64,000 nt of DNA from Candidatus Omnitrophota bacterium. Lineage in GTDB: Bacteria; Omnitrophota; Omnitrophia; Omnitrophales; Aquincolibacteriaceae. Position numbers and translations under genes: made by a program. The notes under the pieces were generated by a model that saw only the letters and a list, made by a program, of their open reading frames with translations, was not told the origin of the DNA and ran no database searches. Shown here piece by piece: positions 1 through 46,634 of the stretch. The stretch is taken from NCBI GenBank assembly GCA_049324575.1, contig JBMONI010000024.1, forward strand, positions 53,144-117,143. The letters are read 5' to 3'. Each line of letters opens with the position of its first letter. Within the stretch, counting starts at the first letter, position 1.

Positions 1-600
1 CGGGATCAGGGCCGGCTGGTCCGCTTTGGCATCGATGGTACCCACAAGTTTCCGGTCGCCTTCGACCTTGCCGTACAAAGCTTCGATCTGCAGCTCCGCC
101 CCGGACTCCTGAACAAGCTTATGAGATTCGTAGGCGTATTTGATCGCCGTCCACATGATCGAGACGGCAGGATGATCGACCTGGCCGACTGCAAAATCGA
201 TCGCAGTGACGAGCGCTTCATCATATTGGCCTGCTCCCAGTTTTTCTGCGCAGGTCTGGACTTTTTCGATCGTTTCTTGGATGAGGTCGAATTTATCCTT
301 GATCTGTTTGATGTAAGGATCGGTGATATCAAGCTGGCCAGTATAAAGTTTTTCGTACCCCCCGAGCGAATCCCACATCCAATCGTCCAGTTTGCTTTCC
401 CCCAACCCCTTGAGCCCTTCCACCGCTCCGTCCTCGGACATCATCGCCTCGGCCACTTCAAGCCCCAGCCCCAAAGCTCCGAGATCGTCCGAATCCGTCA
501 AAAGCCCTTTTTTGTCGTCGTCCTCCGCCCCAAGGACCGGGGAAAAGATCATCATGGCCATGAAGACGGATAGGATAAAAATAGATTTATTGTTTTTCAT
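1..600 (-). CDS. secreted hypothetical protein, partial: the N-terminal ~200 aa are visible and the gene continues past the left window edge
   Basis: Absent from the ORF track because there is no in-window stop. Hand translation of the minus strand from an ATG at ~598-600 gives MKNNKSIFILSVFMAMMIFSPVLGAEDDDKKGLLTDSDDLGALGLGLEVAEAMMSEDG...KADQPALIP. It stays open for 200 codons to position 1, has a classical cleavable signal peptide, and has an AAGGA RBS about 6 nt upstream. It lies 75 nt downstream of the giant gene stop on the same strand. Confidence 0.6.
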   Translation of the reverse strand, partial: MKNNKSIFILSVFMAMMIFSPVLGAEDDDKKGLLTDSDDLGALGLGLEVAEAMMSEDGAVEGLKGLGESKLDDWMWDSLGGYEKLYTGQLDITDPYIKQIKDKFDLIQETIEKVQTCAEKLGAGQYDEALVTAIDFAVGQVDHPAVSIMWTAIKYAYESHKLVQESGAELQIEALYGKVEGDRKLVGTIDAKADQPALIP

Positions 601-675
601 TTCATCCTTGCGTGGTTGTTATTCATTTAAAATTTTTTCGAGTTGCTCTCTGTTTTTCCTTCAATGCGTTCTCGA

Positions 676-3600
676 TCACGTTTGGAGGTTTCGAGATCCA
701 TCCGTTTGTACGGCATAACGGAAAGTCGTCGAGGTCGTCGCAAATCCGTCGTCCGTATGCCCGGTGATCTGCACTTTCCCGTAATACCCCTCCTGCGTGA
801 TAAAAACGTGAGTGGCTCCATTTGTCGAAGCGTCGACCGGACCGTTCCCGTATCCCCCCGAGGGCGCCTCCGTCAGCGCATCGTAGCTCTGAACGCTGGC
901 CTGGATCTGGGCACCTCCGTTGGTCCAGAATATATTCGTCTCGAGGTAGATATCCGCTGCCCCGCTACCGTCCATAACCGCACCCGTTGAAAAGTCGAAT
1001 CCGTCCTGGACCCCCGTATGCCCGGGGATATCATTCATCGTCGCAGTTCCCGTCCGGGGAGGCGTGGCCGGCCCCGTCGTCCCGACGCCCCCATCATCCA
1101 AAGTCTCTGAAGCTCCCGGCTGGACCGGATTTCTTTGATTCTTGGCTTCGCGGATATCGTCAATCACCGTCGAGCTTTGTCCGCTCGATTCCGCGATCTC
1201 TGGTGAAAGCGTCGCATAAAGGAGATTCCCCCGGAGATTCTTGATCCGCATCGCCCCGTCTTCCATCACGAACATCATGGTCGTGCGTCCGGTCGTTTTC
1301 TGCTCCTGTCCGGTCTTGCGCGGGACCTGGCTCTTGTCCCACTTGGTCTCGGCCACATACATATCACCCCGTTTTTCAACGCGGTCGATATAGATCTTCA
1401 AACGGATATCGGTAAAAAGCTCGAAATCAAAACGAACCCCTTCCTCGAGGAAAACCCGGTTCCCGATGAAATCCCGCGAGATAAAAGCCGCGAACCCCGT
1501 GGCATCCTGGCGCTCATAGGCGCCGGCCATATCAATAACTGTTTTCTTGAGCATGTCCGAATAGTTGAGGTCCCGGTAAATAATGCTCGTGATATTCGGG
1601 AAGAAAACAAGCTCGAATTCTTTCATCAGTTTAGTCTTGATGCGAAGCTTCGGCTCGATCTTCGAGCCCGGCATCGGAGCGATCTCGATCTGGACCGCTT
1701 GCTGAACAGGAACTTCTCTCCAAGTGCGCCCGTTATCCGAGGAGAAGAGCATTTTCTCGATCCCGTCGATATGCGAAAGCCACCCCGTCAGAAGGATCTT
1801 CCCCTCCCGTAATTGCTCCGGCAAAAGCACCACTTCGCCGTAGGCGCTCCGAAGATCATACGAATTGACCCGGGGATCGGTGAGACGGTAATCCGAAAAA
1901 AGTTTCTCTTGGCTTCTCTTTTCCATTTCAGCGTTCACTTCGTCTTCCACCTGTTGAATGACCTTGTAGGAATCGTCCCCGCCGAGCCCCGCCATGGCTT
2001 TTTTGACTTTTTCCGGGAGCGGATGATCGGGGATCCCGTACCCCGTCCCCCCTGCTCCATAATAGTCCTTCTTCGCCTTCTCAAGGGCAGCCAGGACCGG
2101 CCCCAAATCCGCGTCTTTTTTATGGTCGGTCCAAAACTGACGAAGCGCGTTTACAACGGCGCCTCGCCCGCCATCCCGATTATTCGCCGCGTTGAGGATC
2201 TCCTGATCCGCCTGCTCCATCTCCTGCAAAGCCTTTTTCATCTCTTCAAGGGCTTTGGCCGCTTTCTTGAATTTGATGGCCGTCTCCTCCTGGTTCGCGC
2301 GGGCGGAATAAACCTGCATCTCAAAACCGCTCAGATCCGGCATGGTGAATTCCGGAATCTTCCGGTCCGTGAAATACTCCGCTAAATAATCATAGTAATC
2401 GTCGAAAGCCTGCCCGTAACTTTTGTAAGCCGCTTTGAGAGCCGCAATCGCCTGCTCAAGCGCGGCGGGATCGATCTGGACCGCGGCCTGTTTCTGTCCC
2501 TGGTACTTCCCCTCTAATTCTTTCAATTCCTTTCCGAAAGCTTCGGTGTCGCGCATTAACCGCTGGGCGGCAAGGCCCGGATTCGCACCCCGGAGAAATT
2601 GCCAGGGCTGAAAGAAGACATCGTACAAGTACAGAATATCGTAAACGCTTTTCGGTACTTCAGCGCTTTGGCTCAGTTCCGTTAAAAGTTTATTGACTTC
2701 CGTTTGCCTGGAAACCACGGCTGCTTTTTTCCCCAAAGCGGCTTCATAAAGAGACAGGGCCTTGTCGATCGAGAAATCCGTCGCCTTGGGATATTTTCTG
2801 AGAAACGCCACGGCAGGATTCTGGTCAAGGCTGTTCAAGTTACTCCGCACACCTTCGGGATTCGCTTCGTAGATGCTCTTGATCATACGGTCCAGATCAG
2901 GGTCCTCGACCAAACGTTCTTTTCCGCACTGAACGGTCGAGTAGTAACCGCAGATATCCTTCCAGCCCAAACGGAGATCCCCGCCCGTTTTGATCTCATC
3001 ATAGACCCTGACCCGCTCCTCCCACACAAATTGAGGGAATTCCCAAGTAAAATCAGCCTCCCCCAAGGCTTCTTCGATTTTCTCCCGGTTGACCCCCTTT
3101 AAAAGGGACTGATATTGAACAAGCGCCGACGCAGCCTCCTTGTTTTTAGCGTCGTCATAAGCAGGTTCCTCATTCCCGGCCGGAATCTTTTCAGGAATAT
3201 CGGGCAAAGGAGCGATCCCTTGGAAATAAGGAAGTGAAGCCACTTTTTCCAAAACCCCGGAAAGCTCTTTCGCCTGGGTCTCCCACCGAAGAGCCCAGCT
3301 CAAGGCCGGCCCGAGGTCATCTTTCACTATCTGAAGCCGGTCAAGATGATCCTGTTCGATCTTTTTATAAAGCTGTTTGACCAGCCCCGCCCGGAATTCA
3401 GCATAACTCCGGTAAGCGGCATTGACCGTGTTCTCGAAACAAGCCTGCAAAGCCTCAGTGTTCGCTTTGGAGATCGCAGCAACCCGGGCCTGACAAGCGC
3501 TGTATGCGGCGCTATTGAAAGGTTTGGCGTGCCAGATCCTTTGGCATTCGTCACTTGCCGCCATATACACCTTGCTTTGCTCCTTGCTAAGATTGGTGCA

Positions 3601-5304
3601 AGGCTCCGAGGTTTTGGCATTGCTTAACGCCCAGGCATCGGGCAATATCAGACCGGACACGGGCATTTTGCCCGAAAGGACCATGTCGAATATCTTCTGT
3701 TCCATACCCTGGACTTCACTGATACTCATTCCAGCTTTCTGGGCTTCTTCGCTTTTCAGATCCTCCTTATAGTCCTCGACAAAAGTGATGACTTCATCGG
3801 GCCTCCTGTCTTCATAAACCTCCCGCGTCGCCTGGACCACGGAGTCAGCCGCTTTAGGCGGCGGAGTCCCGGCCGCCATCGTCCGGCCGCCCGAGAACCA
3901 TTTGGCATTCACATATTCGTCCTCAGTATCGATCATATCATCCTGATTTTCTTTGTAGTATTTCCGCCATCCCTGGCAGGCCTCGTTAGCGCTTTTTACG
4001 GCATTTTTGAAGGTGTCCGCATTCATCCATGCCTGCACCACATCCTTCAGCACGAGATCCCAGACTTTCTTGACAATGTCCCCGGTTTTTTTCATCTTGT
4101 CGAGCTTTTGCTGGGCCGAGGCTCGGATCGCACCGGAATCCGCCTGCGCCCGTTTTTCCCAGAAGTTCTGGATAACCTCCCGTTCATTGACGGGGGCGTT
4201 GGCGGGCAGGCTCGCAAGTTCGGTTTTCATATAACCGTACATCAATTTGTCAGACTTCCCGATCAAGACCTGGGCCTCCCCCTGAACCACTCCCTGGATC
4301 GTTCCCTCGATCGCCTTCTGGGCTGCGGCATCCTTGGTTTTATTGATCACAAGCGCCTGAAAGCCCGACTCGCTCCCGAAAAGAATGGAAAAAACGAGAT
4401 CGTCGGTGATCTTGGGAGTCAGGGCGCTGCCGCCAGCCATTTTCGCGAGATGATCCGCCATAGCCGTTTTAATCATGGGCTTGACCAGGTCCACAAGCGG
4501 GCTGATGATGTCGCCGTCAGCCAGACTCATAGCGTAGTCGACCAGTTTCGCGAGGTCCACATTCGCGATCACCTGCTCGATATAGCGGCCCATGTATTCA
4601 CCCCAGAACATGGTCGAAGCGGGCAAGTTCTGTTTTTCAGCCTTATAGACACGGACCATAAAGCGCATGTTCTTTTTGACGAGCTCCGCCCGCGCGTTTA
4701 ATTTCGAAAGCCGCTCCGTCAGCTCCTGCTGGAACGCCTGGATCTCGGGAGCGGCGTCTCCGCTATCGAGCTTATGCTGGATCTCAGTCAAGGCTTTGCG
4801 GATGGCTTCCGATTCTTCGATGATCTTTCGCGCCTCCGCGCTCAGATTCGAGTTGAGGTTCTCAACGTTCTGCCAGCTATCGCCAAAAATATCTTCGTGG
4901 CTCGCTCCGAAGATCCATTGACCGGCGTTCGCGACACTGGACAAAGCGACCGCTGCCGCCGAAAGCACGGTGGATTCTTTTGCGGCATCATCCAGCATGG
5001 CCTTCCAGCTCGAAGAGGCACGCGCATCCCGAAGCGCGAGGTCGAGGTTGCTGAGGATGCCACGCTCTTTTTGGATATTTGCGCTCAAAACCTGGGTCTT
5101 TGCATAGACATCCGGAGAAGGATTGGCTGCGAATTGCGTGTAGAGAGCTTTGAGTTCGGCCTTATGTTGGGCGATCCTGTCTTTGGTGAACTGGATCTGC
5201 TGAAGCACGAGGTCTTCCTGAGGAGAAGCCGCAAGACCCTGACCCGTGATCCCTGCGGTCATGAGAAAGCTGATGCAGAACCCTACGAACGTTTTTTTTA
5301 ACAT
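676..5304 (-). CDS. giant secreted alpha-helical/coiled-coil protein (~1542 aa) of unknown function
   Basis: ORF track 676..5469. The start was moved to the internal ATG giving MLKKTFVGFCISFLMTAGITGQGLAASP (signal peptide). Most of the protein is Lys/Glu/Ala/Gln-rich helical sequence. The C-terminal ~130 aa are Gly/Thr-rich and beta-like (…GATHVFITQEGYYGKVQITGHTDDGFATTSTTFRYAVQTDGSRNLQT). No recognisable catalytic motif. Confidence 0.8.
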   Translation of the reverse strand: MLKKTFVGFCISFLMTAGITGQGLAASPQEDLVLQQIQFTKDRIAQHKAELKALYTQFAANPSPDVYAKTQVLSANIQKERGILSNLDLALRDARASSSWKAMLDDAAKESTVLSAAAVALSSVANAGQWIFGASHEDIFGDSWQNVENLNSNLSAEARKIIEESEAIRKALTEIQHKLDSGDAAPEIQAFQQELTERLSKLNARAELVKKNMRFMVRVYKAEKQNLPASTMFWGEYMGRYIEQVIANVDLAKLVDYAMSLADGDIISPLVDLVKPMIKTAMADHLAKMAGGSALTPKITDDLVFSILFGSESGFQALVINKTKDAAAQKAIEGTIQGVVQGEAQVLIGKSDKLMYGYMKTELASLPANAPVNEREVIQNFWEKRAQADSGAIRASAQQKLDKMKKTGDIVKKVWDLVLKDVVQAWMNADTFKNAVKSANEACQGWRKYYKENQDDMIDTEDEYVNAKWFSGGRTMAAGTPPPKAADSVVQATREVYEDRRPDEVITFVEDYKEDLKSEEAQKAGMSISEVQGMEQKIFDMVLSGKMPVSGLILPDAWALSNAKTSEPCTNLSKEQSKVYMAASDECQRIWHAKPFNSAAYSACQARVAAISKANTEALQACFENTVNAAYRSYAEFRAGLVKQLYKKIEQDHLDRLQIVKDDLGPALSWALRWETQAKELSGVLEKVASLPYFQGIAPLPDIPEKIPAGNEEPAYDDAKNKEAASALVQYQSLLKGVNREKIEEALGEADFTWEFPQFVWEERVRVYDEIKTGGDLRLGWKDICGYYSTVQCGKERLVEDPDLDRMIKSIYEANPEGVRSNLNSLDQNPAVAFLRKYPKATDFSIDKALSLYEAALGKKAAVVSRQTEVNKLLTELSQSAEVPKSVYDILYLYDVFFQPWQFLRGANPGLAAQRLMRDTEAFGKELKELEGKYQGQKQAAVQIDPAALEQAIAALKAAYKSYGQAFDDYYDYLAEYFTDRKIPEFTMPDLSGFEMQVYSARANQEETAIKFKKAAKALEEMKKALQEMEQADQEILNAANNRDGGRGAVVNALRQFWTDHKKDADLGPVLAALEKAKKDYYGAGGTGYGIPDHPLPEKVKKAMAGLGGDDSYKVIQQVEDEVNAEMEKRSQEKLFSDYRLTDPRVNSYDLRSAYGEVVLLPEQLREGKILLTGWLSHIDGIEKMLFSSDNGRTWREVPVQQAVQIEIAPMPGSKIEPKLRIKTKLMKEFELVFFPNITSIIYRDLNYSDMLKKTVIDMAGAYERQDATGFAAFISRDFIGNRVFLEEGVRFDFELFTDIRLKIYIDRVEKRGDMYVAETKWDKSQVPRKTGQEQKTTGRTTMMFVMEDGAMRIKNLRGNLLYATLSPEIAESSGQSSTVIDDIREAKNQRNPVQPGASETLDDGGVGTTGPATPPRTGTATMNDIPGHTGVQDGFDFSTGAVMDGSGAADIYLETNIFWTNGGAQIQASVQSYDALTEAPSGGYGNGPVDASTNGATHVFITQEGYYGKVQITGHTDDGFATTSTTFRYAVQTDGSRNLQT

Positions 5305-5426
5305 GGCATTCCGAGAAAGCCTCACGGATAAAATACCGGATCCTTCCTGCTTGCACCGCCAACACCGGGGATCCGGCTCAAGGGGATCGGCGCCGCGGAA
5401 GGCGGAGAAATCCACGGGTCCCGATC

Positions 5427-5882
5427 TTATGAAAAAGGACTTTCTCCGCGCACCTGATAGAGCCTCCAACGGTCCTGCTCACGCGCAAAAATAAGGTCGG
5501 CGTTTCCTTCCGTCAACTGCAATTGCCCGGTCGCCCGGATCGTGGATTTTTTCTTCCAATCAATGCTTGCGACCAGACGGTCTCCCTGGAAAAAAGCGCG
5601 GTCGATGAAAAATTTAAGCTCCGCAACCGAGCGGGCACGAAAATAACTGTCTTCCGCCTGCCGGACAAAAGCAAGCCGGTCCGGAATAAAGTTCGGCGAC
5701 ACCTGTTCGGTCAACTCCGCTCGGTCAAAAATGCGGTAATACCTGAAAAGCGATCCGACCGCAAGCTGAGCGGCCGCATGGGCGTTCGGATCGAAGGCCG
5801 GAGAGGCCCCCACATTGTCCATGGTCGATTTACATCCGCTGAACAAAAGGCAAAGGATCAGAATAGTGGATCTAAGGAGCAT
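5427..5882 (-). CDS. small lipoprotein (lipobox LFSGC), unknown function
   Basis: N-terminus MLLRSTILILCLLFSGCKST is a signal peptidase II-type lipobox. The stop/start junction overlaps the upstream OMP gene at 5882, which implies translational coupling. Confidence 0.7.
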   Translation of the reverse strand: MLLRSTILILCLLFSGCKSTMDNVGASPAFDPNAHAAAQLAVGSLFRYYRIFDRAELTEQVSPNFIPDRLAFVRQAEDSYFRARSVAELKFFIDRAFFQGDRLVASIDWKKKSTIRATGQLQLTEGNADLIFAREQDRWRLYQVRGESPFS

Positions 5883-7642
5883 CAGAATGGGCTGGCGAAT
5901 TTGGTGATGACACGCGATTCATTGTAATCTTGTGTGAAATCTTCATGGTTGTAGATATTCCGCTCGTACCGGACCGTAATGCGCGATCCCCGTTTTTTGT
6001 TCACGAGGAGATCCGTCTCAAAAAAATTGCGGGTATTCAGCGAATCGCCATTCGGGGCCACGCTGTTTTGGTTTACCAGGTTATAACCGGCCCGCAAAGT
6101 GAGTCGCGTATGGAGGTCGTATTGGGTATTGAGGGAAAGCGTTCCGCTCAGGTCATTGTCATCATCGGTCTTGGTATTACGGATGTCCACGGCATAATCA
6201 CCCGAAAAATACCAACGCCGGCCGAAGACTATCGTGTCCCGGGACCCGGAAAACCCGAACCGGTTGAAATAATCACTGCTCGCCTTGCTGTTGCCCTCAT
6301 CTTCATAGGCGCGGTATTCATATCGCCCTGACACCGTCGTATTCCAGATCCGGTCGTTCACCGAAGTCCCCAGGGTCGTGGTGTAGGCCTCCACACTGTT
6401 CTGGGGATTGTCCGAGCCTCTCTGAAAATAATTCCAGTAATTGCGCAGTGAAAAGTCCCGTCTTGAATCAAAAGGCCGCAGGGTCAAGGTAATGTATTTC
6501 TCGTCATTTTCGGTCTGATAAGCCCGCGCACTGTGCTCCAAATGATCGCGATACCAGTTCTCGACCAAAGAAAGCGTCAGTTTATCGAAAGGCGTAATAT
6601 CCACCGAGAATTGATGCTGAAGCTTGTCCGGGCTGGCGGAGCCGACATCGGTGTAAAAACCCGGCTGGACCCAATAATACAAATATTTGAAGGTCACCCA
6701 TTTCGTCGTGAATTGAGGCTGGAGGCGGAAGGCGGTCCCGTAAATACTCTGATGGTCGGAATAACGGGTCGAATCTTCGTCAGCCTGGTAACGGCTGCGC
6801 GCGACCTCATAGACCATCGTGAAATACTTTTTCATCACGACCTCGCCCAGAAGCCCAACAACCGTGTTCTCGAGATCCTGGGTCACCGTCCCGGAAGGCG
6901 CAAGACGCCATCCGTTGGAACTATCGTCCTGATTGGTCACCGCCTGAGCGGCCAAACGGACCAAAGAGAACCACCAGAAATCCCGGAGGAGCGAAAGATC
7001 GAGCTGTCCGCCGGCCACATGCCGTTCATACCGGGCCGTAGTGATATCTTCCTTTTGGCTTCGGGCTGCGACAGCTTTGATCTTCTGTCCTTTGAGCGGT
7101 TCGATCTGGGCCTGAAAGCCTTCCAGTGATGCCCCTAAGGTGAATTGGCTGAACTCCGAATAAAAGTCCCCGAACTCGACACGGTTCCTGTCGTTATAAA
7201 TAGCGATGTTCAGGTCTTTCAGGCGCACATCCCGTCTTTTTTCGATCTGACGGTCATCGGTTTTCCGCATGAAAGCGCGAGACTCGATCTTGTAACCCGC
7301 CCAAAGCCTCTCCCACGCCTGAAGATTGATCTCCTGGAGGTAATCCCATCCGCGCTCGAGGAAGGACTTCGAGATGTTCCCGCTGGTATCCTGCCAGGTC
7401 ATCTGGCTCAAAATCGTTCCGCTGAGCTGCCCCGAGCGATTGGGCTGGTAGCTGCCGTAATCCTTAAAATTCACAAAGTCTTTGAGTCTTTGTTGAAAAT
7501 TCGCGGGCGGGACTTCTTCTCCCCCCTGCGAACCGGAATCCGAGGAACCCAGATAATAGACTTCGGCCGCAAAAGCGGGAAAGAAAGAAAAAATGGAAAC
7601 TAAAACGAGGGAAGCGAAAAAAACAACGAAATATTTCTTCAT
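5882..7642 (-). CDS. outer-membrane beta-barrel protein, unknown family
   Basis: ORF track 5882..7945. The start was moved to the ATG giving MKKYFVVFFASLVLVSIFSFFPAFAAEVYY (signal peptide). The sequence is Tyr/Asn/Asp/Arg/Ser-rich with alternating hydrophobic beta-strand patterns. The C-terminus ...VITKFASPF ends in Phe, typical of BAM-targeted OMPs. Confidence 0.7.
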   Translation of the reverse strand: MKKYFVVFFASLVLVSIFSFFPAFAAEVYYLGSSDSGSQGGEEVPPANFQQRLKDFVNFKDYGSYQPNRSGQLSGTILSQMTWQDTSGNISKSFLERGWDYLQEINLQAWERLWAGYKIESRAFMRKTDDRQIEKRRDVRLKDLNIAIYNDRNRVEFGDFYSEFSQFTLGASLEGFQAQIEPLKGQKIKAVAARSQKEDITTARYERHVAGGQLDLSLLRDFWWFSLVRLAAQAVTNQDDSSNGWRLAPSGTVTQDLENTVVGLLGEVVMKKYFTMVYEVARSRYQADEDSTRYSDHQSIYGTAFRLQPQFTTKWVTFKYLYYWVQPGFYTDVGSASPDKLQHQFSVDITPFDKLTLSLVENWYRDHLEHSARAYQTENDEKYITLTLRPFDSRRDFSLRNYWNYFQRGSDNPQNSVEAYTTTLGTSVNDRIWNTTVSGRYEYRAYEDEGNSKASSDYFNRFGFSGSRDTIVFGRRWYFSGDYAVDIRNTKTDDDNDLSGTLSLNTQYDLHTRLTLRAGYNLVNQNSVAPNGDSLNTRNFFETDLLVNKKRGSRITVRYERNIYNHEDFTQDYNESRVITKFASPF

Positions 7643-7859
7643 TAAAAAATCGAACGCCTTTCCGATAATGAGGTGTCGATTCAAGTTAGGGTGAAAGAAA
7701 TATATCGTAGTGGGTCCTAAAAATCCACTTAAAAATAAATTGAGGCTATTTGGGAAAAAGGATTTTTTAACTCCCGGAGACGGTACATGAACCAGCCCTT
7801 CGGGGATAGCCCGGTGTTTCCCAAAGATTTCCCGGATCGCCTTTGCCGGGGCAAGCAGG

Positions 7860-14209: not shown

Positions 14210-15190
14210 TCATTGGAGCGAGACCTGCCCTGATCTCTTTCGGAAATGGATCCGCAACATGATTGCTCCCAAGTTAAGCAGAAACGTCAATGCGATCAAA
14301 ACCAAAGTCGTCCCGTATTGTAGCGGAAGCGTCTTTTCCGCATCGGTCGACTGAGTCGCCATGATAAAAATATGATACGAAAGCTCCATGAACTGATCGA
14401 AGGGATTGATCATGGGAATGAATCCAAAAAGCTTGACCATCGGAAGGCGGGGAAGGAAATAAGCGCATCCCGTAAAAAGGATCGGAGCCGTTTCCCCCGC
14501 CCCGCGACTGATCGAAAGGATGGCGCCCGTCAAAATCCCGCCGCGCGCCTGGGGAAGAACGACATCGCGGATCGTCTGCCACTTGGTCGCGCCTAAAGCG
14601 ATCGAGGCGGCCCGTTGACTTTGCGGAACGGCATTCAAGGCTTCCTCCGTGGACACGATGATCACCGGCAAGACGAGCACCGCTAGCGTCGCCGCAGCCC
14701 ATAGCATGCAAGGTTGGCCAAACAAGAGGCCGGTTTGGAGCACTTGGTCGAGGTTCTTTCCGACGAAGAGGATGAAAAAACCCACACCAAAAAGACCGAA
14801 TACGATTGAAGGAACTCCCGCGAGGTTGTTCACCGCCGCACGAATGATCCTGAAAACGATCCCCTTTCCCGCATATTCCACCAGATAGATCGCGGCCCCG
14901 ACCCCGATCGGAAGCGCCAAAAGGATCATCATCACCGTAATGGCCAAGGTCCCGAAAATGCAGGGAAAGATCCCTCCCTGGGTCATCCCTTCCACCGGCG
15001 CCTGGGTCAGGAATTCCCATGTCACCGTGCGATGCCCCAGCAGGAAAATCTTCCCCATGATAAAGATCAACGCGATCAAGGGAATGGCCGCGAAAATACG
15101 CACAACGGTTTCAAGGACCGCCTCTCCCAAATGGAAGCGCCGCATCCTCAGATCAGAAACCGCGATCACGGAAGCAAGGCTCATGGTCAC
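14210..15190 (-). CDS. pstA: phosphate ABC transporter permease PstA
   Basis: Polytopic permease with the EAA-loop region …ASIALGATKWQTIRDVVLPQARGGI… A 4-nt overlap with pstC gives operon coupling. Confidence 0.9.
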   Translation of the reverse strand: MTMSLASVIAVSDLRMRRFHLGEAVLETVVRIFAAIPLIALIFIMGKIFLLGHRTVTWEFLTQAPVEGMTQGGIFPCIFGTLAITVMMILLALPIGVGAAIYLVEYAGKGIVFRIIRAAVNNLAGVPSIVFGLFGVGFFILFVGKNLDQVLQTGLLFGQPCMLWAAATLAVLVLPVIIVSTEEALNAVPQSQRAASIALGATKWQTIRDVVLPQARGGILTGAILSISRGAGETAPILFTGCAYFLPRLPMVKLFGFIPMINPFDQFMELSYHIFIMATQSTDAEKTLPLQYGTTLVLIALTFLLNLGAIMLRIHFRKRSGQVSLQ

Positions 15191-16191
15191 ATCCTCAACC
15201 GGCCGCGCATCCGGTTCAAAATAAGTTCAGAGACAAGATTGACGAAGAAGGTCAGCGTAAAAAGGACCGCCCCCACAACAAAGAGAGCATAGTAGTGTTC
15301 CGTATCGCGCGCGACCGCACCCAATTCGGCCGCGATATTGGCGGTCATGGTCCTGACGCTCGAAAAAATATTACCGGTCACGAGCGCGGCATTCCCGGTG
15401 GCCATCACCACGATCATGGTCTCGCCCAAGGCCCGCCCGAACCCAAGAATGACCGCCGCCGAGATCCCCGAGACGGCGGCCGGCACCACGGTCCCCCAGA
15501 TCGTCTGCCATTTTGTCGCCCCCAGAGCGAGTGACGCATCTCGAAGTTCCTTGGGAACCGCCCTGAGCGCATCTTCGGAGATCGTAATGATGATCGGGAG
15601 GACCGCAAGCGCGACTCCCAGAGCCCCTACAAACGCGTTGAGGCGGAAGCGTGTATGAAAAACATGTTGGACGAAACTGGCCACCACGGCGAGCATGAAG
15701 AATCCGAGGACCACGGACGGAATGCCGGCCAGCAGTTCCAGGGTCGGTTTCAGAGTCTCGCGGACCTTCGGAGAAGCGATCTCGGCAAGATAGATCGCGG
15801 TCCCGATCCCGAAGACCGACGCCATCAGGGTCGCCGGAAGCGCGACGAGAAAACTCCCGCAAAAAAGCGGGACCAGCGAATATTTGGGGACTTCCGAAAC
15901 GGCCTGCCACATCAGTTTAAAGACATTCCTTTCCTCCCATTCATCGAAAACCCATTTTCCGACGAGATCGAGCGGGCTGGCCGTCTTGAAAAAGAAAACC
16001 GCTTCTTTGAAAAGAAAAATAAAAATCAAAGCAATAATAAGGACCGAAGAAATGCCGGCCACCACAAAAAAACGTTCCATCGCCCATTCCCCCGGAAGCA
16101 CCTCTTTCTTTCCGAGAAAGGTCCGGACACGAGACGGCCCCCCCCCCGCTCCGGGGGGGGCTTCCCGCTTCGACTCGTTTCTGTGGATCAT
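15187..16191 (-). CDS. pstC: phosphate ABC transporter permease PstC
   Basis: …ASLALGATKWQTIWGTVVPAAVSGI… paralogous to PstA. ORF track 15187..16248; the start was placed at the internal M (MIHRNESK) to avoid a 40-nt overlap with pstS, so the start is uncertain. Confidence 0.85.
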   Translation of the reverse strand: MIHRNESKREAPPGAGGGPSRVRTFLGKKEVLPGEWAMERFFVVAGISSVLIIALIFIFLFKEAVFFFKTASPLDLVGKWVFDEWEERNVFKLMWQAVSEVPKYSLVPLFCGSFLVALPATLMASVFGIGTAIYLAEIASPKVRETLKPTLELLAGIPSVVLGFFMLAVVASFVQHVFHTRFRLNAFVGALGVALAVLPIIITISEDALRAVPKELRDASLALGATKWQTIWGTVVPAAVSGISAAVILGFGRALGETMIVVMATGNAALVTGNIFSSVRTMTANIAAELGAVARDTEHYYALFVVGAVLFTLTFFVNLVSELILNRMRGRLRM

Positions 16192-16207
16192 AAGATTCAC
16201 CGGCTTT

Positions 16208-17080
16208 TTACGAGGTTTTGAGAGGAATATATCCGACCTCTTCAACAACCTGCTGACCTTCGGCGCTCAGGATCCAATCCATGTATTGCTTGATCTTCCC
16301 TTTGGGTTTAAACCCGGAATACATGTAGAGATATCGCGCGATCGGGTAACGTCCCGACCAAGCCGCTTCATAGTCCAGCTTTCCATCGGCTTTAACGGGG
16401 TTCACCGCCGGCGACTGATCATCTTTTTTCACCGAAAGGATCCTGAGCTGCGACTGGCCGACAAAGTAAGCCGCCCCCCCGTAGCCGATCCCGCCGGCAT
16501 CTTTACTGACGGCATTCGTGACCGCGCTAGTGCCGGGCATGGTCTGGCAATCCGGCGCGTAATCCTGGTTCTTCAGAACATGTTCCTTGAAGAACACGTA
16601 GGTGCCGCTATTGGATTCACGGCAATAGCGCAGGATCGGAGCGTCACTGCCTCCGACTTCTTTCCAATTATTGATCTTGCCGGCGTAGATCCCCATCAGC
16701 TGTTTCATGGTTAGTTCCGCTACGGGATTGTCGGCATGGACGACCACAGCAAGGCTATCGAATGCCACCTTGAACTCCTCGGGATAATAGCCCGCCTGCT
16801 TGGCCTTATCTATTTCCGACGATTTGATGGGGCGGGATGCGTTGGCAAGATCCGTCGTTCCGTTGATCAAGGCCGCGATCCCGGTCCCGGAACCGCCGCC
16901 TGTCACCTGGATCGCCACATCCGGGTTCTTCTGCATGTACTTCTCGGCCCATCGCTGGCCAAGGATCACGATCGTGTCCGATCCTTTCACGGTGATATTA
17001 TCCGCGGCCCAAGCCAAGGATGCGAATGGCAGCAGGACCGCCAAACCGGCCATGATTGATTTTACGATGTTCTTTTTCAT
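16208..17080 (-). CDS. pstS: phosphate ABC transporter substrate-binding protein PstS
   Basis: Signal peptide MKKNIVKSIMAGLAVLLPFASLAWA. Periplasmic binding-protein fold motifs (SGSGTG-like GGGSGTGIAALINGTTDLANASR). GGAGG RBS upstream of the internal ATG (track ORF 16208..17161). Confidence 0.9.
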   Translation of the reverse strand: MKKNIVKSIMAGLAVLLPFASLAWAADNITVKGSDTIVILGQRWAEKYMQKNPDVAIQVTGGGSGTGIAALINGTTDLANASRPIKSSEIDKAKQAGYYPEEFKVAFDSLAVVVHADNPVAELTMKQLMGIYAGKINNWKEVGGSDAPILRYCRESNSGTYVFFKEHVLKNQDYAPDCQTMPGTSAVTNAVSKDAGGIGYGGAAYFVGQSQLRILSVKKDDQSPAVNPVKADGKLDYEAAWSGRYPIARYLYMYSGFKPKGKIKQYMDWILSAEGQQVVEEVGYIPLKTS

Positions 17081-17114
17081 TGGATATTTCCTCCGTTCGC
17101 TATTTGATACTGCG

Positions 17115-18563
17115 TTAGAACTTCCAGACCAGGTCCATCTGGAACCGCCGGGTCTCTTCATCGCGAACCCCGGCCGTTCCCGTCGTCAGATTATTGACGA
17201 AGAAAGCCGCCGCATTGAGTGAGAGAAAATCCGTCAGCCCGTAGCCCGCCTTAAAAACACTGCCGCGCTTATTCGAATGCCCGGTGCCAAAATCGCTGTC
17301 ATTGAAAGCCCCGACCACGGAATTGGCCTCGATCCGTTTGTAGGCATAGCTGAGCTCCCAGTCGCCTTTCTTCTGGATACCGCCGACCTTCGTGCCGAGT
17401 GCCCAGGCCAGGCCTTCGTCATACTGTGTGTTCGCGGAATCCGCCGTCGTATTCACCGCCACGTCAAAATACGGCCGGAGAGGCACCCCCATCGGATAAA
17501 ACGCCAACTCGTTGTAGGACTCGATCACGTTGAACCGGGAATCCAGGCTTCCGGTCACGCCGTCGTAATTGGAGTTCCCGCGAGCCAGTGACGTTGTCCC
17601 GATAAGGTAATTGCCGTTCAAATGATAGTCGTTGTAGTTATAGAACGAGAAAGCGCTGAGAAAATCGATCGGCCGTTCCATGAAGGGCGTATAAGCGATG
17701 GCATTGACCCCGACCTGGAAGGCATACAGTTCCGCGTCAGCATCGTCCGAAGCCGCGGTATCCTCATCCAGCACGAACTGCCCCGCCAAACCGTACGCGT
17801 TGATATCGATCTCCTCTCCGTCCAGGACATTCAGATCGATCTTCTCGTAAACGCCTTCCGGCTTCACGTCACGGTCCCAGATCATGTCCGACGAACCTTT
17901 TTCGAAGGGATTATCGAATTTACCACCCGCGATCGTGACTTTTTCGATCGGGCCCACCTGCATGAATTTCGGACTGTATTTCGCATAGGCCTTCTCGATC
18001 ATGATGTCCTTGAAATTGAACAGATTGTCAAACGTCGCATTGGTAGAGGTCGGATCGACGTTCGTCCCCGAAGAGGTCGCCCCGGAGGCCAGCGCGAAAC
18101 CCACGTCCATCTCATCGCTCAGTTTCTTCTCAAATCCAAAACGAAGGCGGAAACGAAACCGGTTCTGAGAATCGCTTTCCGCGGTCGTCCCGTTGGTATA
18201 GTCGAACGCTTCGTAGCGAAGGCGGAGATCCCCTTTGAACTTCAGGTCCTTCAGCCATTTATTGGCGCCGCCAAGCGCATTCCCTAGACGTTCGTTGAAT
18301 TCGTAATCCGACATGGGCGGAGTCGCCTCTCCGGAAGCCGGAGCCGCCATTTGAACATTGCCGCCCTGGATCTGGCGAAGTTTATCGTCCTGCTTTGCGA
18401 TTGTGGCATTTTGCTGTGCGATCGTCTTCTGCATGTCTGTGATCTGCTTCTGCAGATCATTGATCATGCCGGCGATCTGGCCCTCATCCGCGCGGAGAAG
18501 ACCTCCCCCCAACATACTGAGGAGCGTCAACGCGCCCACGAACATGATTGCATTCGGTTTCAT
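17115..18563 (-). CDS. putative outer-membrane porin, OprO/OprP-like by context
   Basis: Signal peptide MKPNAIMFVGALTLLSMLGGGLLRA, an N-terminal coiled-coil segment (…LQKQITDMQKTIAQQNATIAKQDDKLRQIQ…) and a Tyr/Gly/Asn-rich beta-barrel body. C-terminal …DLVWKF. It sits first in the pstSCAB-phoU operon. The family assignment is inferred, not proven. Confidence 0.55.
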   Translation of the reverse strand: MKPNAIMFVGALTLLSMLGGGLLRADEGQIAGMINDLQKQITDMQKTIAQQNATIAKQDDKLRQIQGGNVQMAAPASGEATPPMSDYEFNERLGNALGGANKWLKDLKFKGDLRLRYEAFDYTNGTTAESDSQNRFRFRLRFGFEKKLSDEMDVGFALASGATSSGTNVDPTSTNATFDNLFNFKDIMIEKAYAKYSPKFMQVGPIEKVTIAGGKFDNPFEKGSSDMIWDRDVKPEGVYEKIDLNVLDGEEIDINAYGLAGQFVLDEDTAASDDADAELYAFQVGVNAIAYTPFMERPIDFLSAFSFYNYNDYHLNGNYLIGTTSLARGNSNYDGVTGSLDSRFNVIESYNELAFYPMGVPLRPYFDVAVNTTADSANTQYDEGLAWALGTKVGGIQKKGDWELSYAYKRIEANSVVGAFNDSDFGTGHSNKRGSVFKAGYGLTDFLSLNAAAFFVNNLTTGTAGVRDEETRRFQMDLVWKF

Positions 18564-18640
18564 AAGATTTCCCTCCAATGAGATTGTCGCTTTGGTCATG
18601 GTTGCCCGCCTTCAAGAGACTTAAACGGCTTCTGCAAACG

Positions 18641-18660
18641 ATCTTCGAATATCTTCGAAG
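18641..18660. promoter_or_regulatory. perfect 10-bp tandem direct repeat ATCTTCGAAT/ATCTTCGAAG, candidate response-regulator (PhoB-like) operator upstream of the porin-pst operon
   Basis: Read directly. It lies ~80-100 nt upstream of the porin start on the minus strand, in the phoR-porin intergenic region. Direct-repeat half-sites with ~10-11 bp periodicity are the architecture of OmpR/PhoB-family sites. Confidence 0.3.
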
Positions 18661-18905
18661 ACACGGTTAGCTTAGATCCCTCATGTCTGAGGAAAATGAA
18701 GGCCAAGTAAAATCTGTGTAAAGGAAAAGGCGAAACGAAGCTGTCCCGCGCCGCAGGAAGGAAGAATCAAAATATGCCCGCAGGAGAAAGCGTAGGGTCC
18801 TTTGAAGAGGCCAAGGCCTCCCTTGGCATGTTCAAGGCAAAATTGGGCTCACACGTCCGTTCGAGGACGTCGAGGCTGGCTTTCAAACGAGGGAGAGAAA
18901 TTTGA

Positions 18906-20693
18906 TCAGGAAGCCGCAGGCAGGGTAAAGGAAAAAACGGAGCCTTGCCCCAACCGGCTCGAGCAATGGACCGCGCCGCTGTGGGCCTCAATGATATGCT
19001 TGACGATGGCAAGCCCAAGCCCGGTCCCGCCCAATTCCCGGGAACGGGCTTTGTCGGCACGGAAAAACCTTTCGAAGATCCTCGGGATCACCTTTTCCGG
19101 GATCCCGATCCCCGTATCCTCGATCTCAACACGAACGATCGCTCCATCCCGGCAGGCCGAGAAACGGATCAAGCCGCCCTCTTTGTTGAATTTGACCGCA
19201 TTATCGACAAGATTGACGAGCACTTGCTGCAATCGGTCAGGATCGGCAGAAACAAAGATCGCCGGTTCTGCGCCGATCGCATTATCGATCCGGATCTTTT
19301 TTCTCGCGAGAGATGGCGCCGAGGCTTCAAGGACTTTTCCGATCTCCGCCCGGAGATCGAGCCGCTTACAGCTCAGCGGGACCTCCCCGGATTCGATCTT
19401 CGAAAGCTCCAGCAGATCGTCGATCAGCCGGGTCAAACGGTCCGTATCCTCCTGCATCATCTGCAAGAAATGTTTTTCCTGCTCGCGCCCCGATGAAAGC
19501 TCCGTCAATAACGTCTCCAGGAACCCTCTAATCGAAGTCAGCGGCGTCCGAAGCTCATGAGAAACGTTCGCCACAAAATCCCTGCGCAGGTTTTCGAGCC
19601 GCCGAACGTCCGTCACATCATGAAGAACGAGAATCCCACAAAGGGCCCCTTCCGTCTTGGAGATCCCGATCGCATTTCCGCGGAGGACCGACCGTTCCGG
19701 AAGCCCCAGTTCGATCTCTTGAGCCACGACGCCGCTCGACTGGACGGCCTCGCGCATCATTTGATCGATCTTCGGATTGCGGGTGATCTCCATCAGGCTC
19801 CGCCCGATCATTTGATCGTGGGAGGTCCGGAACATCTTCGCCACCGCCGGATTGGCCATCAGAACGCAGTTCGCCCGATCCACGGCCAGCACCCCTTCGA
19901 TCATATGATCAAGCACCGCGCCTAATTTTGTTTTTTCGATCTCAAGTTCCTCAATCCTTTTCTGAAGAGCAGCGGCCATTCGGCGCATCGAGGTCGCAAG
20001 GACATTCAGTTCGTCGCTGTCCATAGCCGCCGCAGCCGAGGTCAGATCGCCGGCCCCGTAGCGGCGGGCCGCTTCGACCAGTTCTCCCACACGCCGGGTC
20101 AAACGCCCCCCCATCAAGATCCCGATCACCAGGATCACGGCAATACCCGCCGCCGCGCCAACCAGCATCGGCTTGCGGATCGCGTTGTAAAGCATATGAA
20201 CGTGATGGAGCGGCACGGCAACCCGCATCACCCCCGCCAATCGCCCTTCATCCAGGATGGGCCCCGCGACATAAAGCATTTCGCGGTTCAGAGTCATGCT
20301 AAAACGGACACTCGCACCGATCCTGCCCTGCAAAGCTTCACGCACTTCAGGACGGCTTGCATGATTCTCCATTTGGGTCAACGCTTCAAAGGTCTCTTCG
20401 GAATCCCCCAGGACCGTCCCTTCCGCGTCAATAAGAGTGAGCCGTAAGCCGACATCGCTCCCCAGCTCGTGGGTCAGTGCGAACACTTCCTCCGTTCTTT
20501 TTTCGGTCAAGAGTTTGCCTGGGATCGTATGCGCAAGGAGCCGCACTTCGGTCTTCATGGAGTCCTGAAGCTGCGCAAGCATTTGCTGTTTGAGAGCCTT
20601 AAAGAGGAAAATGCCGGTAAGAATGTAGATCAAAATAAAAAGACTGAGATAAGCCGCAATAACACGCTTTCTAAATCCAAGCGCCAAGAACAT
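18906..20693 (-). CDS. phoR: sensor histidine kinase, PhoR-like (TM-HAMP-PAS-HisKA-HATPase)
   Basis: H-box FVANVSHELRTPLTSIRG. N and G boxes (…VNLVDNAVKF…, DTGIGIPEKVIPRIFERFFR, GGTGLGLAIVK). Overlaps the stop of the upstream OmpR-family RR. Confidence 0.85.
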   Translation of the reverse strand: MFLALGFRKRVIAAYLSLFILIYILTGIFLFKALKQQMLAQLQDSMKTEVRLLAHTIPGKLLTEKRTEEVFALTHELGSDVGLRLTLIDAEGTVLGDSEETFEALTQMENHASRPEVREALQGRIGASVRFSMTLNREMLYVAGPILDEGRLAGVMRVAVPLHHVHMLYNAIRKPMLVGAAAGIAVILVIGILMGGRLTRRVGELVEAARRYGAGDLTSAAAAMDSDELNVLATSMRRMAAALQKRIEELEIEKTKLGAVLDHMIEGVLAVDRANCVLMANPAVAKMFRTSHDQMIGRSLMEITRNPKIDQMMREAVQSSGVVAQEIELGLPERSVLRGNAIGISKTEGALCGILVLHDVTDVRRLENLRRDFVANVSHELRTPLTSIRGFLETLLTELSSGREQEKHFLQMMQEDTDRLTRLIDDLLELSKIESGEVPLSCKRLDLRAEIGKVLEASAPSLARKKIRIDNAIGAEPAIFVSADPDRLQQVLVNLVDNAVKFNKEGGLIRFSACRDGAIVRVEIEDTGIGIPEKVIPRIFERFFRADKARSRELGGTGLGLAIVKHIIEAHSGAVHCSSRLGQGSVFSFTLPAAS

Positions 20694-35260: not shown

Positions 35261-35338
35261 TGGCGTCCCTAACGGGATTTGAACCCGTGTCGCCAGAATG
35301 AAAATCTGGTGTCCTAGACCAAGCTAGACGATAGGGAC
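35261..35338 (-). tRNA. tRNA-Glu (anticodon UUC)
   Basis: Minus-strand sequence GTCCCTATCGTCTAGCTTGGTCTAGGACACCAGATTTTCATTCTGGCGACACGGGTTCAAATCCCGTTAGGGACGCCA. Cloverleaf with 7-bp acceptor stem, anticodon loop TTTTCAT (UUC), TPsiC arm GGGTTCAAATCCC, encoded CCA. Similar to bacterial tRNA-Glu. Confidence 0.9.
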
Positions 35339-35525: not shown

Positions 35526-38500
35526 TTAGGCTGCGGTCGAGATCAGAAGATCGATCCTGGCCCGTTCAAGGATCCCGAGGACCGCGTTGAATTCGCCCGG
35601 AGCGTCGGCTTCAGCATCGTGGACGGCGTAGGATTCTCCGGGCTGTGCCTCAAGAAGCGACCGCACGACGACCATCATATGGGCGGCAAGCCGCGATGGA
35701 GAACGGCCGGAAGAATACTTCCATACACGCGCAATTCCCGCGCGCCTTTCGACACGCCCCACGGAATCTTCATCCAGAAGGACCGCATGGGACCCCACCA
35801 GCCGTGTTTGCGGAAGCGAAGCCATCACACGGCGTTCCGCGTTATCCCCCACGACCTGAAATTGTCCCGGCGCCGGGACAATTCCCGCCTGTTGAGCTTT
35901 GGCAAGGATCCGCGCCTGATAAAAAGCCGCAAAGGCTGCATCATAACCCGTAAGGTTCAACCGAAGCTCCGCACGGGTCAGGACCACAGCCCCAAGCACG
36001 GCGGGCAAATATTCGGCAAGTTGATCGAGTTCGGCCCCACGGAGGAGCGGCAAGCGCACATGGGCCGTTCGCCCTTCTTCGCGAGGTTCCGCGACAGCAG
36101 AAGGTCGCGCCGATAGGAAACGCGAATCGGCCAGCCAAGGTTGAAGAAGATCCACTAATTCCGCGTTATCGACCGAGGCCGCCCCAGGCTCATCCGCAAG
36201 CAAGGCAAGGACCGCCCCCTCCCGCTCGTCCCCGGTCATTTCGAGAGGAAGAAGCACTCCAGGCGCAAAGTCCGTGATACGAACTTCCGCCCCTCCGGGG
36301 AAATCATTCCGCAAAACCGTTTTCCATTCCGAGGTCGAGGGGATCGAACGCACTTCCGCGCGCGGTCCCAGGACTTCATCATGCTCAATCCCGGTTTTGC
36401 CGAGAAGTTCTTTGATGTAGCCGACCATTTCTTCTTTGACCGATTCCGCCACAGGCTCTCCGCCCCTGTTGATGAAAAGCGTCAGGGTATCCGTCAAATA
36501 TCCCTTGCCGTAAAAGAGCCCGACAATATTGATCCCGAATTTCTCGAATAGCCCCTGGGTCGCAAGATAGACGAAATTCTCCCAGCGGGTCACCCGGATG
36601 TTGAGAACGCTTGTCGGAACCATGGCTTTTCCTGTCATGCCTTCCACTTCGAACTGCGTGTCACGGGCAAAAGTGGCTTCCGTCATCGGGCTGTTCCCGG
36701 AATCGACAAAACGCTCAAAGTGGCCCGAGTGCCCCTGTCCGGCAAAGATCTCGCGAAGGATCGCCGCATGAGTTCCGGGTTCGGATTCCGCCGCCAGGAG
36801 CCGGTTCAGATCCTCTTCCAGCGCCCTCTGTTCTTTACCGGAAATATCCTGACCGGCTTTCAGCCGGATCAAAAGCCTTTTGAAGACCATGGGACCGTAG
36901 GCACTGACCCGCGCGCTTTCGACCACGATGTCACGCGAAGCCAGAACCCCGGTCAAGCTCGCGAAAAGGCCGGGACGATCCCCCTTGAACCCGAAAATGA
37001 TCTCCCGGTAAGAATCCGGCAAGCCTTCGACCTTCGCCACCGAGATCTTGGCGGGCCGGGAAGCGATCTTGACATGCGCAAAAAACAAAAGCTGCTTCAG
37101 GACCGCGTCCTCGCTCAGACTGTGAACATATTCCGGACGGAAGTGCCCCAAATATTCCTTGATCAGTTCCCTGTAATTTTCCGGAGAAAAAAGCGCCTTC
37201 AGCGCCGTTTTTTCATCCTCGGACGCATGGCTTTGTCCCAAATACTCGTTCAAATACCGGACCCCCAAAGGAGTTCCGTCACGAACGAGAAGCAATTGCG
37301 CCTCAAGGTCCGGAATAAATGCCCTCGCCCATTCGAATCGAAGTTCCCGCACTTCGTCTTCAGCCGTCTGAAAAGCCACCGCCTCCAACCGCCCGGCGCT
37401 TAAAGCGTGGGACGCCGCCAGATAAGCCTTTTCCATCTGCGTGATCGAAAAACCGCCGTTATGCATCATCGCGGGCTCGATCTCCGCCGGGATCTCCGCG
37501 ATCTTGCGGACAGCGACCATTAAATAGAGCAGCTTGAGGTTCTCCGGAGTATCCCGATGGACCCGCGCAAGAAACTCCTCCGCGATCTTCTCCGCCCCGT
37601 TGGAAAGCAGATCGCGCATCGCGATCATTTCATTCGCCCCGTCGACCAGCGCAAGGATGGCCTCGCGCTCGGGATCGCTGAGCCGCGGAATATCGCTCAA
37701 ATACGCCCTCCGATCGAAAGCATCGAAATCGGCCAAAAAGATCGCAAAACGCAGGATGCGGCGCAGCGACGCATCCGCTACGACCTCCTCATAGATCTTC
37801 GGTAATTGATAGAGCTGGTAGCGGCTGGTGCTGAGGATATCGTTCAGGATCTGATACGCCCGGTTGACCATCATATCCGCGGAATAGAAATCATCCGGAT
37901 TCGGGAATCTGCCGCTCAATTTTTCGTAGCCCGGAGCCATGAGCCGCAGAAAAGTCGTCGTATGCTGATAACGCCAAAAGGTGTAATAAATAGCCTCCTC
38001 AAGGCTGAAAAGATCATACAGACCATTCGCCTGAAGTTCCTGCGCCGCGGCATGATGTCCCGCCATCAGCGAACGCGCCTTGGACAGAAGCATGAGCAGT
38101 TCCTGGCTGGGCCCGATATGGCGTTCGGTCGCGATCTGAAAAGCCGTTGCGATCCGTCCCGAAGATGCGGCGTACCGTTCGGCGCTCGTCACGGGCGAAG
38201 GATAAAGCTGATCGGCTTGGTCAAAAACAAAACCTGCTCTGGGAGAGAAACGGAAACCGATCCGGTTCCTGCTCACAAGATCCTCATTGACTCTACGTGA
38301 AGCGCCATAAACAGGCGCATACTGTAATTTCACGATCTCGGGGACCGCCCGGGTCACAAGGACAAAGACGTTATTGATGTGGTGATAATAGTCCCTAAAA
38401 AATTCCCGCGACAGACTCTCTTGCGAAATTTCCGTCGCCACGTCTCTTCCCAGCGCCGCATGAAACCTCCCGACGAATTCGAGGACTATTTCCGGGTAGA

Positions 38501-44183: not shown

Positions 44184-44347
44184 ATTTGAGTAAAGCCCAT
44201 TCTCCCGATCGATCATCCCCTCAACACACCCCTCCCCCAAAAGCCTCCGAAATGGGGACTACGAATCTGCTATCGTTATGCGGAAATTTCATGAACGAAT
44301 GAAAGGATACCTGAAGGAATTCAAAATATCAAATCGAAATCGCGTCC

Positions 44348-46140: not shown

Positions 46141-46316
46141 CACGCACCTCTTTTCTATTGCAGAAGTGCACAGGATCAAGACTCAGGGACACCCACAAAC
46201 CCAAAACACCCTTTTCCAAGACCTACGTTTCGGCAGCTTCTTTCCACGGCTTCAGAAAGCTCACGCCCCTTTTGACAATGTCGTCACCGTCAGGCAGCGC
46301 ATGATGAATCCTGCTT

Positions 46317-46634
46317 TCACAAAAGAGCATTGATCTTTGCCGCACACAAAAAATCATTATCCGAAAGACCCCCGATCGAATGCGTCGAATACCGCACCTG
46401 GCAGGTTTTATAACCGAACTCGATCTCCGGGTGATGATTTTCCCGGTTTGCGATCCATGCGACCGCGTTCACAAAGGGAACCGTCTCGGCATAATTTTTG
46501 AAAAAGAACGTCCGGACGATCTCCCCATGCTCATGACGCCATCCGGGGATTTGCTCGAGCAGAACACGGATCTCGGCCTCGCTCTTCGGTTTCACGCCGC
46601 CTTCACAAGGAACACACTTTTGGGTCAGGTCCAT
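46317..46634 (-). CDS. pterin-4-alpha-carbinolamine dehydratase (PCD/DCoH family)
   Basis: 105 aa. …FKNYAETVPFVNAVAWIANRENHHPEIEFGYKTCQVRYSTHSIGGLSDNDF… is collinear with the PCD [EDKH]-x3-H-H-P motif region. Confidence 0.85.
   Translation of the reverse strand: MDLTQKCVPCEGGVKPKSEAEIRVLLEQIPGWRHEHGEIVRTFFFKNYAETVPFVNAVAWIANRENHHPEIEFGYKTCQVRYSTHSIGGLSDNDFLCAAKINALL

Follow-up and report, generated by a model that had tools for sequence, protein, structure and literature searches.

Gene organization of the cassette

The genes described here lie at the left end of a 64,000-nucleotide (nt) stretch of DNA from a Candidatus Omnitrophota bacterium (assembly GCA_049324575.1, contig JBMONI010000024.1, positions 53,144 to 117,143), referred to below as the window. 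They encode an outer-membrane protein (OMP), a small protein of the NTF2 fold, and very large exported proteins, the giants, and together they form a genuine conserved envelope cassette in which known folds occur in a new combination with no described function. As an original prediction made from the sequence alone had stated, four co-directional genes with short junctions are found here, all on the minus strand. The OMP gene (positions 5882 to 7642; 586 amino acids [aa]) encodes a product with the C-terminal end ...KFASPF, in agreement with the C-terminal Phe noted previously. It overlaps the gene of the small NTF2-fold protein (5427 to 5882; 151 aa) by 1 nt, a single base that ends the OMP stop codon and begins the small gene. 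The first giant, G1 (676 to 5304; 1,542 aa), starts 122 nt past the stop of the small gene, where a distance of about 120 nt had been given, and the next gene starts at position 600, 75 nt past the G1 stop, and continues off the left edge (1 to 600). All four products begin with basic residues and a hydrophobic core, followed by an AxA or lipobox sequence; as judged by eye, the export signals that had been assigned to them are thus present. An AT-rich spacer of 217 nt 5' of the OMP gene (7643 to 7859, minus strand) is likely the promoter region of the cassette. A sigma-70 consensus scan found no minus-strand site in this spacer, and a scan for promoters and terminators gave no useful information, since its counts were near those of shuffled sequence.

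The same genes were located by exact-sequence look-up on a 60-kb Logan contig (L002), on which an independent gene caller placed the identical four starts. On this contig, the open reading frame (ORF) at the left edge of the window does continue, as had been suspected, and reaches full length at 14705 to 19294. The fourth product, originally described as an Asp/Glu-rich secreted protein, is really the first 200 aa of a 1,529-aa giant paralogous to G1, termed G2. Nor is the set limited to four genes: after G1, the order is G2, G3 (1,344 aa), and a 1,536-aa ORF, with G2 and G3 extending the cassette.

None of the four products matched a Pfam or NCBIfam model above threshold. BamA, TamA, TamB, usher, TpsB, autotransporter, and type I secretion system (T1SS) families were likewise undetected in the Pfam, NCBIfam, and profile scans, so the earlier statement that no characterized secretion or fimbrial system accounts for the set was borne out.

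The outer-membrane barrel

The OMP has a signal peptide (MKK...PAFA/AEV). AlphaFold2 (AF2) was used to model the protein from 38 sequences; the model (predicted local distance difference test [pLDDT], 89.4) is a barrel of 26 strands, with a conserved AEVYYLG motif and one short helix on its N-terminal side. All 13 outer loops are of 17 aa or fewer, and no loop anywhere in the barrel exceeds 17 residues. With the inside and outside assigned from hydrophobic alternation, conservation reaches 3.08 bits at lumen-facing positions, compared with 2.43 bits at lipid-facing positions and 2.44 bits in the loops; at many of the lumen-facing positions, an Arg, Glu, or Asp is invariant. In addition, several extracellular loops rank among the most conserved segments, which suggests a protein partner. 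Judged from the model, the loops would be too short to close the lumen, and 26 strands without loops would leave the barrel as an open hole. According to two studies, large barrels such as LptD need a globular plug (10.1101/2025.10.16.682720; 10.1101/2023.01.02.522452).

Close homologs of the barrel number 65, at 37 to 52% identity, and the named ones come nearly all from Omnitrophota metagenome-assembled genomes (MAGs); the OMP itself is 100% identical to a protein of a MAG labeled Candidatus Omnitrophota. An exhaustive profile search returned 337 cluster representatives. Three of the 38 family members match Pfam BBP2_2 (PF10082; best E value, 1e-5), the OMP of the window not being among them; it is plausible that the two families are remotely related as members of the membrane beta-barrel clan. 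Some relatives match Porin_4 or OMP_b-brl models. Searching PDB sequences with the OMP profile gave nothing but compositional matches. Among the distant relatives, P0143, P0144, and P0173 (L043) carry N-terminal AMIN or TPR domains and show weak SlpA_C matches.

The small NTF2-fold protein and the C-terminal module of the giants

G1, G2, and G3 have only their last ~410 residues in common, at 44 to 50% identity (BLASTP; 49% between G2 and G1). What had been taken for a small Gly/Thr-rich beta domain at the C terminus of the giant is really this 410-aa module, which comprises three domains. Its AF2 model, obtained with 25 sequences (pLDDT, 85.8), begins with a beta-sandwich and an NTF2-like cone, from which a connector of two helices and then a disordered linker lead to a beta domain at the C terminus. 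Specifically, domain 1 of the G1 module (1576 to 1890, minus strand; AF2 residues 10 to 114, with pLDDT values above 90) is the beta-sandwich and contains an Asp-box-like S-x-D-x-G-R-T-W motif, in which S59, D61, G63, R64, T65, and W66 are invariant (alignment A1); weak Pfam BNR matches were obtained for 2 of the 25 members. Domain 2 (1228 to 1563, minus strand) is NTF2-like. Domain 3 (679 to 1056, minus strand), located after the connector and the disordered linker, is a HmuY-like beta domain with the end ...FRYAVQTDGSRNLQT. A profile search of PDB sequences agrees with the model (8b6a at an E value of 2e-4), and the Pfam models HmuY (PF14064) and SnoaL_3 match the module below threshold only.

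Both domain 2 and the small protein are assigned to the NTF2-like superfamily, which is recognized by a cone of three helices on a curved sheet. BLASTP of the small protein against the NTF2 domains of G1, G2, and G3 gave E values of 5e-9 to 3e-7, and on this sequence similarity the small protein is a paralog of the domain inside every giant. NTF2 proteins commonly dimerize. The original description of the small protein as a lipoprotein holds for the window, where the lipobox LFSG/C is present, but not for the family, as only about one-third of the orthologs have a lipobox and the remainder have ordinary signal peptides. The small proteins of the window (motif at 5427 to 5450) and of loci L004, L009, L028, and L040 have a conserved G-(D/E/N)-(N/S/D)-P-F motif at or near the C terminus, and the equivalent position of the module reads R-G-N-L-(I/L)-Y-A-T-L-S-P-E; the motif of the small proteins could be a docking peptide.

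The module family is small, only 24 proteins having been returned from a database of 5.8 billion. No relatives of the module were found among the viral contigs of IMG/VR, which makes a phage or mobile origin unlikely. In Bacteroidota, proteins with the HmuY fold are exposed at the cell surface and act as partners of outer-membrane barrels. In the alignment of the HmuY-like domain, no His, Met, or Cys is conserved; HmuY-type heme ligation is therefore unlikely, and so, for the same reason, is a role of the domain as a hemophore.

The N-terminal regions of the giants

All giants have signal peptides, which are followed by N-terminal regions of ~940 to 1,130 aa rich in A, E, K, and L. In G1, the signal peptide and the N-terminal region (1918 to 5304, minus strand) together cover ~1,130 aa, are probably helical, and contain 8 Cys residues. 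When the sequences are read in 50-aa windows, the propensity for helix is higher than that for sheet in nearly all windows of G1 and in most of those of G2 and G3. The regions also contain 1.6 to 2.2% Trp and conserved, globular-looking stretches. At least three N-terminal types exist (G1N, G2N, and G3N), each of which recurs in other genomes; for example, G1N-type orthologs are present at L007 (53% identity) and L008 (40%), and the portion of G2 within the window is of the G2N type. An hhalign comparison of the G2N and G3N profiles gave a probability of 8%, i.e., no homology, and PDB sequence searches with G1 and with the G2N and G3N profiles found nothing beyond helical proteins of similar composition, among them apolipoprotein A-I and designed helix bundles.

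Conservation along the giants peaks in an N-terminal head of 200 to 300 residues and in the C-terminal module and is lower in between. In G2 and G3, the module comes after a linker of low complexity made up of Gly, Pro, and Gln. This run (GPGGQGGPGG...) extends over ~100 aa in G2 (residues ~1000 to 1110; L002 ~17700 to 18050), is located at residues ~900 to 940 in G3, and is much shorter in G1; from its sequence, it resembles a flexible tether whose length varies. The data are better described by a succession of head, helical region, flexible linker, and anchor module than by the coiled coil that had been proposed for G1.

One rival explanation is a system for ligand capture and uptake, with the NTF2 and HmuY-like domains binding a lipid, a porphyrin, or another hydrophobic ligand and the barrel serving as import channel. 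Such a system would be a TonB-independent analog of HmuY-HmuR or an LptD-like lipid-handling barrel and would suit host-dependent nanobacteria; Omnitrophota have been proposed to be host dependent (PMC10066038). The wide barrel with its conserved polar lumen is in keeping with this idea. NTF2 folds commonly form hydrophobic pockets, and proteins of the HmuY family bind heme or porphyrin. However, the HmuY-like domain conserves no residue suited as an axial ligand, the barrel has neither a plug domain nor a TonB box, and no inner-membrane transporter is co-conserved. The fusion of a binder to helical regions of 1,000 aa in three versions would also go unexplained. We consider an uptake function improbable.

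Distribution and synteny

Related loci were collected from GTDB species-representative genomes. The cassette recurs at 34 other genome loci, far above chance, and it is restricted mainly to Omnitrophota. A small-protein ortholog lies directly after the barrel gene in 27 of the 29 loci with enough flanking sequence for this count. Module-bearing proteins adjoin the barrel in 22 of these 29 loci, with one to three per locus, and two further loci end within the start of a module-bearing gene. Most of these adjacent proteins are ~1,200 to 1,740 aa long, and a few are shorter (~450 to 500 aa). At L030, L032, and L003, which have no small gene, the module-bearing protein follows directly after the barrel. 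Barrels as distant as E values of 7e-95 and 9e-59 still adjoin a module-bearing protein of 1,094 aa or an overlapping gene for an NTF2 lipoprotein. Thus, barrel, small protein, and giants are found together in nearly every related genome and not scattered, as the original prediction required.

When all ORFs from 35 loci were clustered, only the barrel and the NTF2/module family proved to be co-conserved; the next most frequent family was present in only 5 loci. The firm result is that the cassette unites two families: a wide barrel and, travelling with it, proteins that contain one particular NTF2 domain, either alone or within the C-terminal tail of giants that are otherwise unrelated. Upstream of the cassette, the Logan contig carries genes for Pst/PhoU, BipA, and a P-type ATPase. 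The P-type ATPase, for which a functional link had been left open at first, is not linked to the cassette, since none of the 34 related loci contains its gene; BipA occurs in the vicinity at only 2 of them. One distant AMIN-type relative of the barrel has a CARDB protein as its neighbor, not an NTF2 protein, and the link between barrel and NTF2 proteins therefore has a boundary. This suggests that the barrel family is broader and re-used with different partners.

The synteny also bears on another rival explanation, in which the OMP is an ordinary general porin whose adjacency to the NTF2 family reflects inherited gene order within one phylum. All close barrel homologs do come from one phylum, and the Porin_4 and OMP_b-brl matches of some relatives point in the same direction. 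Yet the flanking genes vary by locus, whereas the two families stay together across 37 to 52% identity and even at E values of ~1e-59. Moreover, the genes for the OMP and the small protein overlap, every giant contains a domain paralogous to the small protein, and a general porin of this width and loop length would be an unregulated hole in the membrane. A mere porin is accordingly very unlikely.

Two observations on individual genomes may be added. One Omnitrophota MAG (GCA_015231405.1) has two barrel loci, L003 (contig 22) and L027 (contig 6); one is a full cassette with three giants, and the other consists of the barrel and a 448-aa module-only protein, with no small NTF2 gene. Just upstream of this minimal pair lies an ORF of 2,391 aa in which B12-binding, radical SAM, and PHP domains are fused. 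In Omnitrophica CG1_02_44_16 (L004/L016, 8103 to 11521), a G3N-type giant appears to be split into three consecutive ORFs of 92, 532, and 506 aa, which could represent a pseudogene, programmed frameshifting, or an assembly error.

Comparison with known systems

As a large barrel that may be filled by a partner protein, the cassette is by analogy most like LptD/LptE or MtrB/MtrA. It resembles LptD-LptE in combining a barrel of ~26 strands with a small exported (lipo)protein that might fill the lumen, in the expression of two genes as a unit, and in a short-loop barrel that would need a plug. Nevertheless, the barrel has no N-terminal OstA beta-jellyroll and no match to Pfam LptD, and it is not accompanied by an LptE partner. 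MtrB-MtrA-MtrC differs in that the translated partner proteins of the cassette contain no CxxCH heme motifs and the barrel has no Pfam MtrB_PioB match, with an identity of ~10%.

In possessing candidate cargo with a common recognition domain, the cassette is comparable to two-partner secretion (TPS), the type IX secretion system (T9SS), or Slam. Like TpsB/TpsA, it has a barrel gene beside genes for very large Sec-exported proteins that carry such a domain. TpsB, however, is an Omp85 protein of 16 strands with POTRA domains, which the 26-strand barrel of the cassette lacks. In addition, TPS cargo is recognized by a beta-helical domain at the N terminus, whereas the common domain set of the giants is C-terminal. 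More generally, the barrel lacks the 16 strands, the POTRA domains, and the Pfam Omp85/POTRA matches that characterize BamA, TamA, and TpsB. The conserved C-terminal beta domain on otherwise unrelated large exported proteins, a possible barrel address, recalls the C-terminal domain of T9SS cargo (CTD/PorV), which is Ig-like and comprises 80 aa, and the substrates of Slam (the type XI secretion system); these systems differ in having barrels of 14 or 36 strands, and the tag of the cassette is a three-domain module of 410 aa. The cassette products gave no Por_Secre_tail/TIGR04183 match in Pfam or NCBIfam, and at the level of the locus no T9SS or Slam components accompany the cassette.

The remaining systems are less similar. 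FimD and PapC ushers have 24 strands and a plug, whereas the cassette barrel has neither a plug nor the N- or C-terminal usher domains and is only 8 to 10% identical; furthermore, no chaperone or pilin-like subunit is encoded. TonB-dependent receptors comprise 22 strands, a plug, and a TonB box, none of which was seen: there was no Pfam Plug or TonB_dep_Rec match, and the model contains no plug. Autotransporters and T1SS substrates differ from the giants, which have cleavable N-terminal signal peptides and contain no barrel or RTX domains, and no ABC transporter or membrane fusion protein is co-conserved. HmuY-HmuR, finally, depends on a TonB-dependent receptor and on heme ligands absent here, and HmuY is a free lipoprotein in Bacteroidota, whereas its counterpart in the cassette forms the tail of a protein of 1,500 aa.

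Proposed function of the cassette

A dedicated outer-membrane partner for huge helical proteins, as the original prediction had supposed, remains the best reading of the cassette. In its specific form, which we favor tentatively as the most economical mechanism, the cassette would be a barrel-and-plug station, complete in itself, at which helical surface proteins with a C-terminal tag are docked or exported. The folds, the paralogy of the small protein and the module, the close synteny of the two families, and the conserved lumen and loops of the barrel were observed, whereas plugging, docking, translocation, surface exposure, and the role of the payload are inferred. The barrel of ~26 strands would sit in the outer membrane, and the small NTF2 protein, made in fixed proportion from the overlapping gene, would plug or cap it. 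The giants, exported by Sec, would bear the common C-terminal module as an address that engages the barrel, its NTF2 domain either replacing the small NTF2 protein there or pairing and dimerizing with it. The module would thereby dock the giant at the outer membrane and probably let the remainder pass through the barrel, so that the variable helical N-terminal region would be displayed as a coat or adhesion layer on the flexible Gly-rich tether. Three features favor surface display: the conservation of extracellular loops in the barrel, the resemblance of domain 3 to HmuY, and the head-to-anchor layout of the giants. The stronger claim of an undescribed display or secretion pathway, in which an NTF2-gated, non-Omp85 barrel of 26 strands recognizes the NTF2/HmuY-like module and exports or anchors interchangeable helical proteins of ~1,500 aa, is possible but rather doubtful; if it is true, these proteins would be a surface coat or host-contact layer of Omnitrophota nanobacteria.

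Several observations weigh against display or export. Neither an energy source for translocation nor a chaperone emerged as co-conserved from the ORF clustering, and the Pfam and profile scans revealed no detectable relationship of the barrel to any secretion pore. Lipidation of the small protein is not conserved, which weakens the analogy to LptE. Two loci, L009 and L028, encode the barrel and the small protein, with no module-bearing protein within ~10 kb downstream. The AMIN and SlpA_C matches of distant barrel relatives hint at an ancestry in membrane tethering and not in secretion. The same facts fit a periplasmic tether or scaffold too. According to this explanation, the giants would be periplasmic, the module would bind either the small NTF2 protein or the barrel on its periplasmic side, and the helical arms would span or organize the periplasm, resembling the Thermotoga Omp-alpha/Omp-beta or SlpA/OmpM outer-membrane tethers. 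The missing energy source and chaperone are in keeping with such a structure, the AMIN domains of distant barrel relatives bind peptidoglycan, and the N-terminal regions of the giants are long and helix prone. In addition, the periplasmic cell-shape enzymes Csd6, Pgp2, and Bd1075, which contain NTF2 domains, are among the fold matches. On the other hand, the Pfam and NCBIfam scans detected in the giants no SLH, AMIN, OmpA-like, or other domain binding peptidoglycan or the inner membrane. That extracellular loops of the barrel are conserved suggests a partner on its outer side, three unrelated types of N-terminal head per genome are more easily understood as displayed payloads, and the other proteins known to have the HmuY fold are surface proteins. 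A tether thus appears somewhat unlikely, and docking or export of surface proteins by the barrel is retained as the preferred reading.

Omnitrophota are widespread and uncultured, and many have been proposed to be ultra-small and host dependent or predatory (PMC10066038), while the construction of their envelope and their means of cell contact are essentially unknown. The literature on giant genes of Omnitrophota deals with ORFs of more than 10,000 aa that are associated with loci resembling the type II secretion system, and the cassette is not described there. If the proposed mechanism is true, it would be a new route by which very large proteins reach the surface of diderm cells; for an entire phylum, the surface proteins would have been identified, and the C-terminal module would be a tag by which displayed proteins can be predicted. 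Even as a periplasmic tether or an uptake system, the cassette would provide three new protein families and a testable pair of barrel and partner.

Other genes and ORFs

The ORF after G3 (L002 23644 to 24629), to which the gene caller assigns 1,536 aa, has a signal peptide and CarboxypepD_reg and CARDB matches; its first 328 aa have no similarity to the module. Elsewhere in the window, all on the minus strand, three further regions stand out. A 2,904-aa ORF (35526 to 44240), located just upstream of a tRNA-Glu gene (35261 to 35338), has PEP-utilizers_C as its sole Pfam match (residues 1552 to 1731; E value, 6e-14). At 44491 to 51439, a REC-GGDEF-EAL protein is encoded near a 1,152-aa dCache-HAMP-PAS histidine kinase, and at 55965 to 59990 there is a secreted-looking protein of 1,341 aa composed of fn3 and bacterial Ig repeats.

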